Part shown: positions 6,252 to 60,112 of the stretch, piece by piece
How the letters are laid out: each line of letters opens with the position of its first letter
Numbering within the stretch: position 1 is the stretch's first letter
Source of the DNA: Escherichia phage teqdroes
Length of the DNA: 64,000 nucleotides
Reading direction: 5' to 3' (one strand)
Sequence record: NC_054932.1
Notes under the pieces: model-generated
Seen by the model: the letters and a program-made list of their open reading frames with translations, nothing else
Databases searched by the model: none
Told to the model about the DNA's origin: nothing
Position numbers and translations under genes: made by a program

Positions 6252-6649
6252 TGTCAAATATTAATAAGCTTTATTCTGACATTGACCCGGAAATGAAAAT
6301 GGATTGGAACAAAGACGTTTCAAGATCACTTGGATTAAGGTCAATTAAAAATAGTCTTTTAGGAATTATTACAACAAGAAAAGGTTCAAGACCGTTTGAC
6401 CCTGAATTTGGATGTGATTTATCTGACCAACTTTTTGAGAATATGACTCCTCTTACTGCTGACACAGTTGAGCGTAATATCGAAAGCGCAGTAAGAAACT
6501 ATGAGCCACGTATTGATAAATTAGCAGTTAATGTAATACCGGTTTATGATGATTATACTTTGATAGTAGAAATACGCTTTTCGGTCATTGATAACCCTGA
6601 TGACATTGAGCAGATAAAACTACAACTGGCTTCCAGTAATAGAGTATAA
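6251..6649 (+). CDS. 25: baseplate wedge / sheath initiator gp25
   Basis: 132-aa ORF; start overlaps the gp26 stop; T4 gp25 length and position. Confidence 0.85.
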   Translation: MSNINKLYSDIDPEMKMDWNKDVSRSLGLRSIKNSLLGIITTRKGSRPFDPEFGCDLSDQLFENMTPLTADTVERNIESAVRNYEPRIDKLAVNVIPVYDDYTLIVEIRFSVIDNPDDIEQIKLQLASSNRV

Positions 6650-10112: not shown

Positions 10113-11243
10113 ATGGCTTTTACAGTTGATATAACTCCTAAAACACCTACTGGAGTTATAGATCAGACTCAGCAGTTTACTGCTACACCCAGTGGTGAAA
10201 CTGGAGGTGGAACTATTACCTATGCTTGGACTGTAGATGATTTTCCACAAGATGGAGCTGAAGCAACTTTTAATTATGTATTAAAAGGACCTGCCGGTCA
10301 AAAGACTATTAAAGTAGTTGCAACAAATACAGTTCCAGAAGCTGAAGCTGAAACAGCAGAAGCTACTACAACTATCACAGTTCAAAATAAGACACAGACA
10401 ACTACCTTGGCAGTAACTCCTGATAGTCCTGCTGCTGGAGTGATTGGAACAGCTGTTGAATTTACCGCTGCCTTAGCTTCGCAGCCACCAGGTGCATCTG
10501 CTACGTATCAATGGCACGTTGACGGTTCTCCTGTGGGCGAAGCAACTTCTGCTACATTCAATTACACTCCTACCACAAGCGGAGTTAAAACAATTAAGTG
10601 TGTGGCTCAAGTAACCGCGACAGATTATGATGCAAAAGAAGTTACTTCTAATGAAGTGTCGCTGACTGTTAATAAAAAGACAATGAATCCACAGGTTACA
10701 TTGACTCCTCCTTCTATTAACGTTCAGCAAGATGCTTCGGCTACATTTACTGCTAATGTCACTGATGCTCCAGAAGAAGCGCAAATTGAATATTCATGGA
10801 AGAAAGATTCTTCTCCTGTAGAAGGATCAACTAATGTATATACAGTTGATACCTCATCTATTGGAAGTCAAACTATTGAAGTTACTGCAACTGTTACTGC
10901 TGCTGATTATGATAGCAAAACTATTACGGCGGAAGGTCAAGTTCAAGTGACTGATAAAGTTGCTCCAGAACCAGAAGGTGAATTACCTTATGTTCATCCT
11001 CTTCCACATCGTACTTCAGCTTACATCTGGTGCGGTTGGTGGGTTATGGATGAAATCCAAAAAATGACTGAAGAAGGTAAAGATTGGAAAACTGAAGATC
11101 CAGATAGTAAATACTACCTGCATCGTTACACTCTTCAGAAGATGATGAAAGACTATCCAGAAGTTGATGTCCAAGAATCGCGTAATGGATACATCATTCA
11201 TAAAACTGCTTTAGAAACTGGTATCATCTATACCTATCCATAA
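10113..11243 (+). CDS. hoc: highly immunogenic outer capsid protein Hoc
   Basis: 376-aa ORF with tandem Thr/Val-rich Ig-like repeats (recurring ATxTVTAxDYDxK); T4 Hoc length. Confidence 0.85.
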   Translation: MAFTVDITPKTPTGVIDQTQQFTATPSGETGGGTITYAWTVDDFPQDGAEATFNYVLKGPAGQKTIKVVATNTVPEAEAETAEATTTITVQNKTQTTTLAVTPDSPAAGVIGTAVEFTAALASQPPGASATYQWHVDGSPVGEATSATFNYTPTTSGVKTIKCVAQVTATDYDAKEVTSNEVSLTVNKKTMNPQVTLTPPSINVQQDASATFTANVTDAPEEAQIEYSWKKDSSPVEGSTNVYTVDTSSIGSQTIEVTATVTAADYDSKTITAEGQVQVTDKVAPEPEGELPYVHPLPHRTSAYIWCGWWVMDEIQKMTEEGKDWKTEDPDSKYYLHRYTLQKMMKDYPEVDVQESRNGYIIHKTALETGIIYTYP

Positions 11244-45519: not shown

Positions 45520-46216
<697 letters not shown>

Positions 46217-47945: not shown

Positions 47946-48018
47946 TGGGAATTAGCCAAGTTGGTAAGGCACTGGATTTTGATTCCAGGATGCAAAGGTT
48001 CGAGTCCTTTATTCCCAG
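47946..48018 (+). tRNA. tRNA-Gln: tRNA-Gln (anticodon UUG)
   Basis: Cloverleaf folded by hand; acceptor TGGGAAT/ATTCCCA; CCA not encoded. Confidence 0.75.
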
Positions 48019-48019
48019 C

Positions 48020-48106
48020 GCGAGAATGGTCAAATTGGTAAAGGCACAGCACTTAAAATGCTGCGGAATGATTTCCTTGTGGGTTCGAGTCCCACTTCTC
48101 GCACCA
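48020..48106 (+). tRNA. tRNA-Leu: tRNA-Leu (anticodon UAA), long variable arm, CCA encoded
   Basis: Cloverleaf folded by hand; acceptor GCGAGAA/TTCTCGC. Confidence 0.75.
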
Positions 48107-48111
48107 AATTT

Positions 48112-48185
<74 letters not shown>

Positions 48186-48231
48186 ATTTATGACTCGTCG
48201 TGAGACGCTCAGTTCTTTATTAGGGACTGAT

Positions 48232-48840
48232 ATGCATTTTTATCTTTATAAAATAACAAATAAAATTAATAATAAAATTTATATTGGTGTGCATTCTACC
48301 GAAAATTTAGATGATGGATATATGGGTTCTGGTAAATTATTAAAAAGAGCCCAAGACAAGTATGGTATAGAAAATTTCTCTAAAGAAATATTAGAGTATT
48401 TTGATGATAAAGAATCTATGCTTGAAGCCGAGAAAAATATTGTCACAGAAGAGTTTTTAAATAGACCAGATGTGTATAATTTAAAACTTGGCGGAGAAGG
48501 TGGATGGGACCATATAAATAATTATCCTATGACAGATCAGCAACGCGAATTAATTTCATTGGGTGTTAAAAAGGCACATTCTAACGGAAAATTAAAAGGA
48601 TGGTCTTCAAATGGATTAATGAAGAATGGCTTTGCTGGTAAAAATCATTCTCAAGAAGCTAAACGTAAAATAGCAAAAGCAAACGAAGCAAAAGTTTCTG
48701 CGGATGAAAGAAAAAGAAGAATAGAAATTTCTAAATTATATGATTTTTCTAAGCGTGGTGAATTATCTAAATATGCTAAGCATATTGGCGTAAGTCATAC
48801 TCAAGCAAAAAGAATTCTAAATCAAATTAACAATATATAA
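48232..48840 (+). mobile_element. segB: GIY-YIG homing endonuclease (SegB-like) inside the tRNA cluster
   Basis: FYLYKITNKINNKIYIGVH...YMGSG GIY-YIG motif; track ORF opens at 48190 but ATG 48232 has an AGGGA ribosome-binding site. Confidence 0.75.
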
Positions 48841-48846
48841 ATATTT

Positions 48847-48936
48847 GGAGGCGTGGCAGAGTGGTTTAATGCACCGGTCTTGAAAACCGGCAGTCGCTCC
48901 GGCGACTCATAGGTTCAAATCCTATCGCCTCCGCCA
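48847..48936 (+). tRNA. tRNA-Ser: tRNA-Ser (anticodon UGA), long variable arm, CCA encoded
   Basis: Cloverleaf folded by hand. Confidence 0.75.
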
Positions 48937-48942
48937 GTTTTT

Positions 48943-49018
48943 GCTGATTTAGCTCAGTAGGTAGAGCACCTCACTTGTAATGAGGACGTCGGCGGTTCGA
49001 TTCCGTCAATCAGCACCA
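48943..49018 (+). tRNA. tRNA-Thr: tRNA-Thr (anticodon UGU), CCA encoded
   Basis: Cloverleaf folded by hand. Confidence 0.75.
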
Positions 49019-49019
49019 A

Positions 49020-49094
49020 GGCCCTGTAGCTGGAAGGTTCAAGCAAGCGACTCATAATCGCCAGATGGTGGTTCAATTCCACCCAGGGCCACCA
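49020..49094 (+). tRNA. tRNA with CAU anticodon (Ile2/lysidine-type or Met)
   Basis: Cloverleaf folded by hand; identity between Ile(CAU) and Met cannot be decided from sequence alone. Confidence 0.6.
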
Positions 49095-49106
49095 AATTAT
49101 GAATTA

Positions 49107-49193
49107 GGGGAGTTATCCCGTAGAGGTAGCGGTGTGGACTGTAAATTCATTGTCATTGCGACTCGGGTGGTTCGACTCCACCACTCCCCACCA
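49107..49193 (+). tRNA. tRNA-Tyr: tRNA-Tyr (anticodon GUA), type II long variable arm
   Basis: 87 nt with CCA; anticodon loop CTGTAAA; T-arm GGTGG-TTCGACT-CCACC; acceptor GGGGAGT/ACTCCCC. Confidence 0.55.
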
Positions 49194-49197
49194 ATTT

Positions 49198-49272
49198 GGA
49201 TGTGTAGCTCAATGGTAGAGCGATCGCCTGTTAAGCGATTGGTTATAGGTTCGAATCCTATCACGTCCGCCA
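49198..49272 (+). tRNA. tRNA-Asn: tRNA-Asn (anticodon GUU)
   Basis: Cloverleaf folded by hand; anticodon loop CTGTTAA. Confidence 0.6.
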
Positions 49273-49386
49273 AATTTGTGACAACTGTCACATTAATATC
49301 TACTTGACGCGATTATAGGGGTTGAACTGATCACTCTTCTCTTAATTTCGTGTGAAGACATCTTGATTGTTGGAGTAGGTATTAAT

Positions 49387-49462
49387 GTGGCCGTAGTTCA
49401 GTTGGTAGAACTCGAGATTGTGATTCTCGTAGTCATGGGTTCGACTCCCATCGGTCACCCCA
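49387..49462 (+). tRNA. tRNA-His: tRNA-His (anticodon GUG)
   Basis: Cloverleaf folded by hand; anticodon loop TTGTGAT. Confidence 0.6.
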
Positions 49463-49466
49463 ATTA

Positions 49467-49542
49467 CGGGGCATAGCTCAGAAGGAAGAGCAAGGACCTT
49501 CTAAGTCCTAGGTCGTAGGTTCGATCCCTACTGCCTCGACCA
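49467..49542 (+). tRNA. tRNA-Arg: tRNA-Arg (anticodon UCU)
   Basis: Cloverleaf folded by hand; anticodon loop CTTCTAA. Confidence 0.7.
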
Positions 49543-54592: not shown

Positions 54593-55123
<531 letters not shown>

Positions 55124-55126
55124 AGT

Positions 55127-55163
55127 TGTTTACTTTCTCCTAGAATTGTGATAGTATATTCAC
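55127..55163 (+). promoter_or_regulatory. early promoter with the -10 in a TGTGA/TCACA stem-loop
   Basis: GTTTAC then TGTGATAGTATAT. Confidence 0.5.
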
Positions 55164-55182
55164 AGTTACTTGGAGGGATAAA

Positions 55183-55599
55183 ATGACTCGTATTAATTTG
55201 ACTTTAGTATCTGAACTTGCTGATCAACATTTAATCGCAGAATACCGTGAATTGCCGCGTGTTTTTGGTATAGTTCGTAAGCATGTGGCAAACGGTAAGC
55301 GCGTTAAAGATTTTAAAATATCTTCTAAATTTATTTTAGGTTCTGGTCATGTTACTTTCTTTTACGATAAGTTAGAATTTTTGCGAAAGCGTCAATCGGA
55401 CATTATAACGGAATGCTTAAAACGCGGGTTCAGTATAAAAGATACTGAAGTTCCTGACATCAGCGATATTCCAGTAGAATGGAAAAATGATTATAATCCA
55501 TGCAAATCAGCTATTAAATTGAGTCAACAACGACTTGATGAAAAAATTTTAATGAAACCACATTGGTATAAGTATTACGGTAAAAATATTTACATTTAA
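55183..55599 (+). CDS. denV: endonuclease V, pyrimidine-dimer DNA glycosylase
   Basis: 138 aa, [17 protein letters not shown]...; recognised as T4 DenV-like. Confidence 0.9.
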
Positions 55600-55608
55600 A
55601 GGAAACAT

Positions 55609-56082
55609 ATGAAAACATATCAAGAATTTATCACTGAAGCAGCTATTAATTCTCAAATTATTGCTGAATCTTTTACTGATCTTTTGAAATTTAAAAAAGG
55701 TCAAAAAATCACTGCTGTATTGGATGATGGTACAGAAGTTGAGATGGATGTACAGGGATATAATTATGCAGTAGATGGAAAACTGTATAATAAATCTCAT
55801 GCTAAATTTGATTCATTTGACGACTTTGTTAATACAGTTGAAGATGAAAAAACTCGTAGATCCATTGCAACTGGTGATGCTAAGGTTCTTATGGCACATG
55901 GTCATGAACGCATTCGCGCTAAACAGAATAAAATGGGTGAAGATAATTTTGCATTAGTTGGTTATCAATCTGGTAAACAAACTTATGGCTATCAACGTAC
56001 TGCTACCATGTATAACAAAAATGGTAAAATTGCCTTTGTGAATAGTAAAGGTTCTATTCAGTACGTTAAATCGTTCAAATAA
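55609..56082 (+). CDS. internal-protein-like protein (157 aa) with canonical capsid-targeting N-terminus MKTYQEFITEA
   Basis: N-terminal 11 residues match the T4 internal-protein targeting sequence; AAGGA ribosome-binding site. Confidence 0.6.
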   Translation: MKTYQEFITEAAINSQIIAESFTDLLKFKKGQKITAVLDDGTEVEMDVQGYNYAVDGKLYNKSHAKFDSFDDFVNTVEDEKTRRSIATGDAKVLMAHGHERIRAKQNKMGEDNFALVGYQSGKQTYGYQRTATMYNKNGKIAFVNSKGSIQYVKSFK

Positions 56083-56187
56083 GCAAATAAGAAATATGGG
56101 AACAACCTGGACCTCATGATTCTGTGAGGGATTCCCGCCAACCTGTAATAAGGTCGAGCCTGAGCGCGGTAATGGGTAAATACAGAA

Positions 56188-56775
56188 ATGGAAAATTCAT
56201 GCGCCATGGAATGGCCCAAATTTAGAGATAACAAAATGAGAACATTTTTAACTGGTCCTTATCTATCCCTGATGAATGCTTTTACACACCATTCTGATGC
56301 TAGAGTAGAAGAAATTTGTAAAAACGATTATATCCCACCATTTGAAGACTTACTCAAGCAGTATTGCACACTTCGATTAGATGGTGGCAGACAATCCGGT
56401 AAATCAACTGCTGTGACTAACTTTGCTGCTAATTGGCTGTATGATGGTGGAACAGTTATTGTTCTTTCTAATACTTCAGCTTACGCTAAAATTTCTGCAG
56501 GCCACATTAAAAAAGAATTTTCTCGTTATTCTGGCGATGATATTCGATTCCGCTTATTTACCGATTCTGTCCGTAGTTTTATCGGTAATAAAGGAAGCAA
56601 GTTCAGAGGTTTATCGCTTTCGCGGATTTTGTATATAATCGATGAGCCTGTTAAATCTCCTGATATGGATAAAATTTACGATATTCATATTGAAACTGTG
56701 CACCACTGTTGCAATAGTAAATGCTGCATTGGTGGTATTACTCGTCCACAGTTTTTCATAATCGGAATGCAATGA
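56188..56775 (+). CDS. hypothetical P-loop protein (vs.8 position)
   Basis: 195-aa ORF with Walker A-like GGRQSGKST. Confidence 0.5.
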   Translation: MENSCAMEWPKFRDNKMRTFLTGPYLSLMNAFTHHSDARVEEICKNDYIPPFEDLLKQYCTLRLDGGRQSGKSTAVTNFAANWLYDGGTVIVLSNTSAYAKISAGHIKKEFSRYSGDDIRFRLFTDSVRSFIGNKGSKFRGLSLSRILYIIDEPVKSPDMDKIYDIHIETVHHCCNSKCCIGGITRPQFFIIGMQ

Positions 56776-57107: not shown

Positions 57108-57470
57108 ATGAAAGCATATCAAATTCTTGAAGGCACACATAAAGGTACTATTTATTTTGAAGATGGTATTCAAGCACGAATTATTGTCTCCAAAACCTTT
57201 AAAGAGGACTCTTTTGTAGACCCAGAAATTTTCTACGGTTTGCATGCCCGTGAAATTAAAATTGAACCACAGCCTACAGTTAAAATCGAGGGTGGTCAAC
57301 ACCTGAACGTTAACGTTCTGCGTCGTGAAACTCTGGAAGATGCAGTTAAGCATCCGGAAAAATATCCGCAGCTGACCATCCGTGTATCCGGTTATGCAGT
57401 TCGCTTTAACTCTCTGACTCCGGAACAGCAGCGCGACGTTATTGCTCGTACCTTTACTGAGAGTTTGTAA
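57108..57470 (+). CDS. hypothetical protein (vs.6 position)
   Basis: 120-aa ORF. Confidence 0.5.
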
Positions 57471-57691
57471 TGGCAAAGATAATTATTGAAGGTTCTAAAG
57501 ATGTGCTAAATGCTTTCGCTGAGTGGTTTAGTAATTCAGGCGAACAGCAATTTAACGAAGCGTGGAATATGGGTGATATTGATGGAATTTATCCTACGAC
57601 AGAAATTTCTGTTCAGGGATATGGCATTCATGAACCTATTCGTTTAGTTGAATATGATTTATGTACTGGTGAGGAAGTCAAATATGATTGA
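57470..57691 (+). CDS. hypothetical protein (vs.5 position)
   Basis: 73-aa ORF. Confidence 0.5.
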   Translation: MAKIIIEGSKDVLNAFAEWFSNSGEQQFNEAWNMGDIDGIYPTTEISVQGYGIHEPIRLVEYDLCTGEEVKYD

Positions 57692-57950
57692 AGATATTAA
57701 GGGTTATAAGCCGCATACTGAAGAGAAAATCGGTAAAGTGAATGCTATCAAAGACGCTGAAGTTCGTTTAGGACTTATCTTTGACGCTTTATACGATGAA
57801 TTTTGGGAAGCATTTGATAGCTGTGAAGATGATGAACTCGCGAAGAATTATGCTGAAAGCCTCGATCAGTTAACTATTGCTAAAACGAAACTCAAAGAAG
57901 CCAGTATGTGGGCTTGTCGTGCAGTGTTCCAACCAGAGGAAAAATACTAA
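57684..57950 (+). CDS. small helical protein at the vs.4 position; candidate Acb2-type cyclic-oligonucleotide sponge
   Basis: ATG 57684 after GAGGAAG; about 88 aa; assignment by position only (fourth ORF upstream of regB). Confidence 0.4.
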
Positions 57951-58228
57951 TGGCTCAATTAAGTGCAGGGTTTGGTTATGAGTATTATACTGCACCTCGT
58001 CGTGTATCTGCCGCTCCTAAGAAAATTCAAAGTCTTGATGACTTCCAGGAAGTAGTCCGTAAAGCTTTTCAGGACTATGCACGTTATCTTAAAGAAGATT
58101 CACAGGACTGTCTCGAAGAAGATGAAATTGCTTACTATGAACAGCGTCTTGAACAGCTTAAAAACTTACATGAGGTTCGTGCAGAAGTTTCAAAGTCTAT
58201 GAATAAATTGATTAGATTTAAAGAATAA
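57950..58228 (+). CDS. hypothetical protein (vs.3 position)
   Basis: ATG overlaps the previous stop (TAATG); about 92 aa. Confidence 0.45.
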
Positions 58229-58230
58229 CT

Positions 58231-58260
58231 GTTTACTTTTCCTCTTGACTGTGGTATAAT
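58231..58260 (+). promoter_or_regulatory. early promoter (GTTTAC ... TGTGGTATAAT)
   Basis: Near-consensus extended -10. Confidence 0.6.
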
Positions 58261-59302: not shown

Positions 59303-59636
59303 AATTTTGGTTTTATGTATAGGATTAATTTCATTTTCTGCGTTAGCAGATACATCATATACTGAAATTAGAGAGTATGTAAACCGTACTGCAGCGGATT
59401 ATTGTGGGAAAAATAAAGCATGCCAAGCTGAATTTGCGCAGAAATTAATATATGCATATAAAGACGGAGAAAGAGATAAATCAAGCAGATACAAAAACGA
59501 TACATTGTTAAAACGATATGCTAAAAAGTGGAATACCTTAGAATGTTCAGTTGCGGAGGAGAAAGATAAAGCCGCTTGTCATTCAATGGTTGACCGTTTA
59601 GTAGATTCTTATAATCGAGGATTGAGTACTAGATGA
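59295..59636 (+). CDS. predicted secreted protein (vs position)
   Basis: 113-aa ORF with signal-peptide-like MTKILVLCIGLISFSALA. Confidence 0.45.
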   Translation: MTKILVLCIGLISFSALADTSYTEIREYVNRTAADYCGKNKACQAEFAQKLIYAYKDGERDKSSRYKNDTLLKRYAKKWNTLECSVAEEKDKAACHSMVDRLVDSYNRGLSTR

Positions 59637-60112
59637 TTGTAAAATATATCAAGGGCGATATTGTCGCCCTATTTCTTCAAGGTAATATTATTGCGCACGG
59701 GTGCAATTGTTTTCATACTATGGGTTCAGGTGTAGCGGGTCAATTAGCAAGAGCCTATCCCAAAATTTTAGAAATAGATAAAACTACTACCGAGTACGGT
59801 TCTCGTGATAAATTAGGCGATATGTCTATTGTTTTTAAACATAATCCTACAGGATTTGGTATATGCTATAACCTGTATACGCAATACGAACCGGGTCCTA
59901 ATCTTGATTATGGTGCTTTAGTAAACTGCATGATAGAATTAAATCTACAGGCAGAAACCCTTTTGTTTAAACCAGTAATTTACATTCCACGCATAGGTTG
60001 TGGTATTGCTGGCGGTGATTGGGATAAGGTTTCTAAATTAATCGACATGTTTACTCCTGATATTGATTTAATAGTGGTGGATTATGAAAGTACATTACCC
60101 GCATCCGTTTGA
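59633..60112 (+). CDS. macro-domain-like protein (possible ADP-ribose binding or hydrolase)
   Basis: 159-aa ORF; AHGCNCFHTMGSGVAGQLARAYP resembles the macro-domain N-x-x-N ... G-x-G-V-A-x-x-[IL] core. Confidence 0.45.
   Translation: MIVKYIKGDIVALFLQGNIIAHGCNCFHTMGSGVAGQLARAYPKILEIDKTTTEYGSRDKLGDMSIVFKHNPTGFGICYNLYTQYEPGPNLDYGALVNCMIELNLQAETLLFKPVIYIPRIGCGIAGGDWDKVSKLIDMFTPDIDLIVVDYESTLPASV

Follow-up and report, generated by a model that had tools for sequence, protein, structure and literature searches.

The vs.4 gene of a T4-like phage encodes a predicted hexameric cyclic-dinucleotide sponge of the Acb2 family and is accompanied by an Acb1 homologue

The window, by which we mean the whole stretch of 64,000 nucleotides from Escherichia phage teqdroes (NC_054932.1) that was analysed, carries the genes nudE, e, denV, Ip4, vs.8, vs.7, vs.6, vs.5, vs.4, vs.3, regB, vs.1, vs and tk.4 in this order, onward to tk. 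From vs.8 to tk.4 the order is the one annotated in T4 and in RB14, on the same strand. The features that concern us most are vs.4, its two overlapping neighbours, and the gene 57B, which lies 11.5 kb upstream of vs.4:

45761..46216, plus strand: coding sequence of 57B (acb1), 151 aa, a predicted 2H-type phosphodiesterase (Pfam PF23474, identity to T4)
57470..57691, plus strand: vs.5, 73 aa, the upstream neighbour of vs.4 (phrog_1986, E 1.3e-43; annotated vs.5 in RB14)
57671..57674, plus strand: Shine-Dalgarno-like GAGG, read from the sequence 9 nt 5' of the vs.4 ATG and within the 3' end of vs.5
57684..57950, plus strand: coding sequence of vs.4 (acb2), a predicted cyclic-dinucleotide sponge (ORF listing, homology)
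57813..57839, plus strand: codons 44-52 of vs.4, the hairpin tip, which hold all four amino-acid differences from T4 (T4 comparison)
57950..58228, plus strand: vs.3, 92 aa, the downstream neighbour of vs.4 (phrog_2037, E 1.9e-40; annotated vs.3 in RB14 and T4)

The vs.4 open reading frame starts with an ATG at 57684 and closes with a TAA that ends at 57950, which makes 267 nt, or 88 codons plus the stop. It is tightly packed between its neighbours: the stop of vs.5 and the start of vs.4 overlap in ATGATTGA, and the stop of vs.4 and the start of vs.3 overlap in TAATG. We considered as the true product a longer frame of 100 aa initiated by TTG (57648..57950), and rejected it since the T4 and RB14 annotations, as well as the crystallised construct (residues 1-88), begin at the ATG, which moreover has its own GAGG site.

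The coding sequences of vs.5 and vs.3 overlap the start and the stop of vs.4, and a polycistronic message that includes at least these two neighbours is the probable template for its translation; the packing of the three genes is consistent with both their co-transcription and a coupling of their translation. Matches to sigma-70-like promoters between 55000 and 59000 are at chance level (15 found against 14.2 expected) and none could be located for the vs.8-vs.3 block, nor does any plus-strand sequence from 55420 up to vs.4 match a MotA box. A strong match to the T4 early type of promoter lies at 58232..58260, within the 59 nt that separate vs.3 from regB, and consists of TTTACT, a 17-nt spacer and TATAAT, with a TG. 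This is the only convincing early-type site, and it is downstream of vs.4; it would serve regB, whose start of transcription would then be separate from the vs.8-vs.3 block.

The first-pass annotation of this DNA had assigned the ORF at 57684 to the vs.4 slot by position only, from a count of six ORFs between regB and an ORF with a targeting sequence. The count is right, as the six are vs.3, vs.4, vs.5, vs.6, vs.7 and vs.8, the same as in RB14 and T4. The genes that frame them are also well identified: regB by its Pfam match (E 5.9e-69), denV by a Pyr_excise match, and the targeting-sequence ORF by 100% identity to RB14 Ip4.

Upstream of this conserved block, the internal-protein locus is rearranged with respect to both T4 and RB14. 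The window has e, denV and Ip4 followed by vs.8 (54629..56082), whereas T4 has e, ipIII, ipII, denV and vs.8, and RB14 has e, Ip4 and vs.8, its annotation lacking denV over the 8.8 kb compared. The intergenic region between Ip4 and vs.8 (56083..56187) is comparatively rich in GC, with 47% in the bin 56100-56199 against 36% for the window; as a candidate structured RNA it was discarded, since its predicted fold does not surpass that of shuffled sequences (z 0.31) and Rfam has no match for it. The second gene upstream of vs.4, vs.6 (57108..57470, 120 aa), encodes a protein with a C-terminal domain of the glycyl-radical type (Pfam Gly_radical, E 2.6e-18), which resembles GrcA/YfiD, the spare-part protein of pyruvate formate-lyase.

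Homology bears out what position had suggested for vs.4. In a comparison with the T4 reference genome, its product has the same length as T4 Vs.4 and is identical to it at 84 of 88 residues (95.5%), and it is 100% identical to the product of the gene annotated vs.4 in RB14. A sequence search of the whole PDB returned as best match, over the full length and with an E-value of 1.7e-53, the entry 7UQ2 ('Vs.4 from T4 phage in complex with cGAMP'), followed by the PaMx33 Acb2 entries 8H2J and 8IXZ (E about 0.05, nearly full length); in the alignment with PaMx33 Acb2, Y8 pairs with Y11 and K23 with K26, both of them essential in that protein. The assignment to the Acb2 type, also put forward in the first-pass annotation, is confirmed by two profile collections: the Pfam family PF24729 (Acb2/Tad1, hairpin domain) matches over profile positions 1-58 of 58 with 71.2 bits (E 8.2e-20; cut-off 27 bits), and the protein matches phrog_717 (E 6.3e-32), the PHROG in which homologues of Vs.4 were found by Jenson et al. 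(PMC10097602). The neighbouring 73-aa ORF (57470..57691), which had been named as the other possible vs.4, has no match to the Pfam Acb2 family, belongs to phrog_1986, is vs.5 in RB14, and has an N-terminus in common with T4 vs.5. By homology, the ORF 57684..57950 is thus the orthologue of T4 vs.4 (acb2), in a T4-like phage (Tequatrovirus).

The gene sits in the same slot between vs.5 and vs.3 as the T4 gene for the protein of 7UQ2 (Jenson et al. 2023, PMC10097602). The two loci differ in vs.5: in the window it has its full 73 aa, as in RB14 and T2, and overlaps vs.4, whereas in T4 it is shortened to 58 aa and followed by a 36-nt gap. The T4 reference gene (6382..6558 of the T4 stretch compared) carries a 1-nt deletion after about codon 18, and its 58-aa product shares the first 18 residues only; judged from this alignment, T4 vs.5 looks like a frameshifted version.

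The region is widespread among T4-like phages. Over 22 kb (42000-64000), the window is about 96-97% identical to Tequatroviruses, and a 1.8-kb query around vs.4 matches 819 phage records, 566 of which cover at least 80% of the query, with at most 98.7% identity among the full-length matches listed. Among phage records, 62 contain a vs.4 with an identity of at least 99%, and both of the sampled rows in this band are 100% identical. In every phage record among the matches listed, the gene is labelled 'hypothetical protein' (or vs.4 hypothetical protein), and the practical value of the present assignment lies in giving a function to such a gene. Homologues were also met farther away, in the Phapecoctavirus (Stephanstirmvirinae) genome MW175890.1, which lies outside the Straboviridae (77% identity), and in PV654520.1, a 142-kb record labelled Pseudomonas phage (98.9%); these point to horizontal spread or to mislabelling.

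The single-sequence monomer model obtained with AlphaFold2 agrees with the helical character proposed at first pass for the ORF of about 88 aa, found at exactly the coordinates then given. It is a two-helix hairpin (residues 10-45 and 50-81, with the turn at 46-49) with a mean pLDDT of 87.3, and the N-terminal seven residues, which adjoin Y8, fall below 50. A Foldseek search with the model retrieved 7UQ2 first (E 2e-9), and then the Acb2 structures 8H2X and 8H2J.

The biochemistry of T4 Vs.4 allows a close reading of this conservation. T4 Vs.4 has a KD of about 30 nM for 3'3'-cGAMP, and a knock-out of the gene leaves T4 more sensitive to CBASS; the protein is a hexamer that holds three cGAMP molecules, each in a pocket formed between two protomers, where the bases are stacked by Y8 and F82, while hydrogen bonds and salt bridges come from Y8, H11, K23 and R79 (PMC10097602). 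The hexamer interface involves L29, A66, A73, A77 and F33, and with the substitution S74N, T12I or A77I the CapV effector is no longer inhibited (PMC10097602). In the window protein Y8, H11, T12, K23, L29, F33, L60, A66, A73, S74, A77, R79 and F82 are all unchanged, which means that, at the level of sequence, every published cGAMP-contact and hexamer-interface residue of T4 Vs.4 is kept. An alignment of nine Vs.4 homologues, ranging from 98% to 55% identity, gives a similar picture: residues 4-12, 22-26 and 70-79 show no variation at all and the adjoining terminal residues hardly any, the binding residues Y8, H11, K23, S74, R79 and F82 are the same throughout, and most of the variation falls in the central part, on the hairpin tip and its surroundings.

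These data lead us to propose that the vs.4 product, an orthologue of T4 Vs.4/Acb2, forms hexamers that serve as a sponge for cyclic dinucleotides and works alongside Acb1, a reading to which we assign a probability of roughly 0.93. Orthology, gene structure and the conservation of the published residues are directly apparent from the alignments; oligomeric state, ligand binding, ligand spectrum and effect in vivo are predicted from those of the T4 protein. Hexamer formation would be expected because L29, F33, A66, A73 and A77 are identical and because the protein as a whole is 95.5% identical to the crystallised hexamer. As in T4 Vs.4, six interlocked copies would make up a hexamer, with one cyclic dinucleotide such as 3'3'-cGAMP clamped in each of its three pockets between two protomers. 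Y8 and F82 would stack on the bases, and H11, K23 and R79 would contact the ligand by hydrogen bonds and salt bridges; S74 may also be placed at the pocket, because S74N interferes with cGAMP binding. By sequestering the signal made by the host CD-NTase, the sponge would keep the CBASS effector off and allow the phage to replicate.

The range of ligands can be approached through the best-studied relative, Acb2 of PaMx33 (8H2J/8H2X/8IXZ; Huiting et al. 2023; Cao et al.). It shares with the window protein the PF24729 domain, the hairpin fold (TM about 0.7) and, presumably, the mechanism of a hexameric cyclic-dinucleotide sponge, but has only 21% identity to it over the stretch aligned by Foldseek. 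PaMx33 Acb2 has a second pocket, in which cA3 and cAAG are bound via R67 and T74, whereas Acb2 of the T4 type has D61 at the position of R67 and a helix without the kink, and fails to bind cA3 (PMC10312549). For T4 Acb2, Cao et al. report a KD of about 84 nM for cGAMP and binding of other dinucleotides, but not of cA3 or cAAG; the reason they suggest is that the helix of the would-be trinucleotide pocket is unkinked, so that Y37, A57, L60, D61 and T64 may clash with the ligand (PMC10312549). The window protein keeps this T4 state: the residues that line the non-functional trinucleotide pocket are identical, with Y37, A57, L60, D61, T64 and T68 all unchanged. As the proposed clash residues are retained, a spectrum restricted to dinucleotides may be expected, and cyclic trinucleotides would be left to the enzymatic counter-measure, Acb1 (57B).

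A sponge of the same family with different or broader ligands than T4 Vs.4, for example 3'cADPR (Thoeris) or cyclic trinucleotides, would have precedents. The Acb2 proteins of PaMx33 and JBD67 bind cA3 (PMC10312549), ten Acb2 homologues inhibit type I Thoeris, and one of the family, Acb2_43, binds 3'cADPR instead of inhibiting CBASS (PMC12393519). We nonetheless hold this explanation to be extremely improbable for the window protein, whose dinucleotide pocket is identical in its residues to that of T4, whose proposed cA3-clash residues have not changed, and whose four differences from T4 all lie away from both published pockets. Moreover, Acb2_43 makes use of additional N- and C-terminal beta-strands (PMC12393519), which are absent from our model. 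Tad1 (Thoeris anti-defence 1) is a further relative to be considered, as it has the Acb2/Tad1 hairpin domain of Pfam and is also a hexameric sponge of immune nucleotides. It differs in binding gcADPR plus some CBASS signals. The window protein gave no match specific to Tad1 and resembles Vs.4 much more closely.

All four substitutions with respect to T4 Vs.4 (L44F, N46S, C50D and F52L, with C50D changing the charge) fall within the nine codons of the hairpin tip. In the model they lie on either side of the hairpin turn, at the pole opposite to the segments that would contact the ligand. At the nucleotide level, nine of the 17 differences from T4 are gathered in 25 nt (nt 130-154 of the gene), a cluster that could represent a recombination patch or a local hot-spot. 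Ten of the codon differences are synonymous and four non-synonymous, and the coding sequence is for this reason likely to be under constraint. The same region is polymorphic in the alleles of other Tequatroviruses, which have F or L at position 44, D or N at 45, S or N at 46, D, C or Y at 50, and L or F at 52.

Such a concentration of changes raises the question of whether we are dealing with a weakened or inactive allele of the orthologue, in which L44F, N46S, C50D and F52L would disturb the packing of the hexamer, a loss that could be favoured by guard systems such as Panoptes, which punish active sponges. The changes do all fall in one stretch of nine residues, the T4 hexamer is already destabilised by a mild interface mutation, F33A (PMC10097602), and natural loss of function is known in the family from T2, whose vs.4 has a deletion of 2 nt. 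Yet the frame is intact in the window and all residues supported by mutagenesis are kept; the substitutions are modelled at the hairpin end remote from the ligand site, in a set of positions (44, 45, 46, 50 and 52) at which related phages differ freely; 10 of the codon changes are synonymous against four that are not; and RB14 has the same protein, while the count of copies with at least 99% identity is 62 phage records. We regard a weakened allele as highly improbable. Positive support for this explanation, as for that of an altered ligand range, goes no further than the variants of these kinds known from other members of the family. Judged by its allele distribution and its pattern of substitution, the vs.4 of the window is a normal circulating allele under purifying selection and not a decaying gene.

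The T2 reference gene illustrates how a disrupted copy looks. It lies on the minus strand, and at about 10836..10860 of the T2 stretch compared GGTTATAAG has become GGATAAA through the loss of 2 nt; the frame that begins at the ATG ends after 7 codons, with loss of Y8, and the annotated product starts at an internal TTG. This fits the mention of a disrupted T2 Acb2 in the work on Panoptes (PMC12657218).

It may also be asked whether the polymorphic tip (positions 44, 45, 46, 50 and 52), instead of drifting neutrally, is under diversifying selection as a surface to which a host factor responds directly by recognition. We find this very doubtful. The host factor could be a guard for which Acb2 itself, as a protein, is the cue, or else a modulating partner of Acb2, and the alleles would then differ in the hosts in which they are safe and not in the ligands that they bind.

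Returning to the orthologous sponge, its proposed partner is the product of 57B, in which the first-pass annotation had seen an Acb1-type phosphoesterase. The match to Pfam PF23474 (Anti-CBASS protein Acb1) is very strong (202.7 bits against a cut-off of 27, E 2.6e-60), and the protein is identical to T4 57B at 151 of 151 residues and matches the solved Acb1 structure 7T26 with an E-value of 4.1e-62. Two H-x-T motifs can be read from the alignment, HST (43-45) and HIT (112-114), whose histidines we take to be the catalytic ones of the 2H fold. T4 gp57B is Acb1 according to Hobbs et al. 2022, as cited in PMC10312549, and acts on the same class of host signals as Vs.4. The two are unrelated in sequence and mechanism: Acb1 cleaves cyclic di- and trinucleotides, whereas Vs.4 binds its ligands without degrading them.

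With functions assigned by homology, the window thus pairs a signal-degrading enzyme (Acb1) with a signal-sequestering sponge (Acb2). The earlier proposal that the window may hold two counter-measures against cyclic-nucleotide signalling is therefore sound, with the one correction that the pairing was already on record: the co-occurrence of Acb1 and Acb2 in T4 has been published (PMC10312549; bioRxiv 10.1101/2025.07.12.664507), as have both proteins and their mechanisms, and what we provide is the correct annotation of a known system and not a discovery. A recent preprint adds a third sponge in T4, Sequestin/Y16O (bioRxiv 10.1101/2025.07.12.664507), for which a search of the 64,000-nt window with the published primer sequence gave no match within 3 mismatches.

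An active sponge may also carry a cost. Panoptes, a system that guards a decoy pool of 2',3'-c-di-AMP, is triggered by T4 Acb2, which is both required and sufficient for this, and the mutants that escape the system lose Acb2 function (PMC12657218). In hosts that carry Panoptes, sequestration of such a decoy by the window protein would trigger the system, as it does with T4 Acb2. Since its vs.4 allele is intact, the phage is predicted, by analogy with T4, to be resistant to CBASS of the cGAMP type and sensitive to Panoptes. Knowledge of the pair of sponge and nuclease helps to predict host range on CBASS strains as well as sensitivity to guards of the Panoptes type, and is relevant when T4-like phages are chosen or engineered for therapy.

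Two more regions of the window deserve mention. A cluster of 10 tRNA genes (47946..49542) is made up of Gln, Leu and Gly, a gap of 660 bp, and then Ser, Thr, Met(CAT), Tyr, Asn, His and Arg; T4 has eight, which include Pro and Ile and lack Tyr, Asn and His. The tRNA-Tyr gene is the only one of the ten missing from the list of Rfam matches at the gathering threshold. Downstream of vs, tk.4 (59633..60112, 159 aa), annotated in T4 just as 'phosphatase', encodes a macro domain (Pfam Macro, E 5.8e-8). Macro domains act on ADP-ribose derivatives, and a role of tk.4 against host defences based on ADP-ribose is conceivable.
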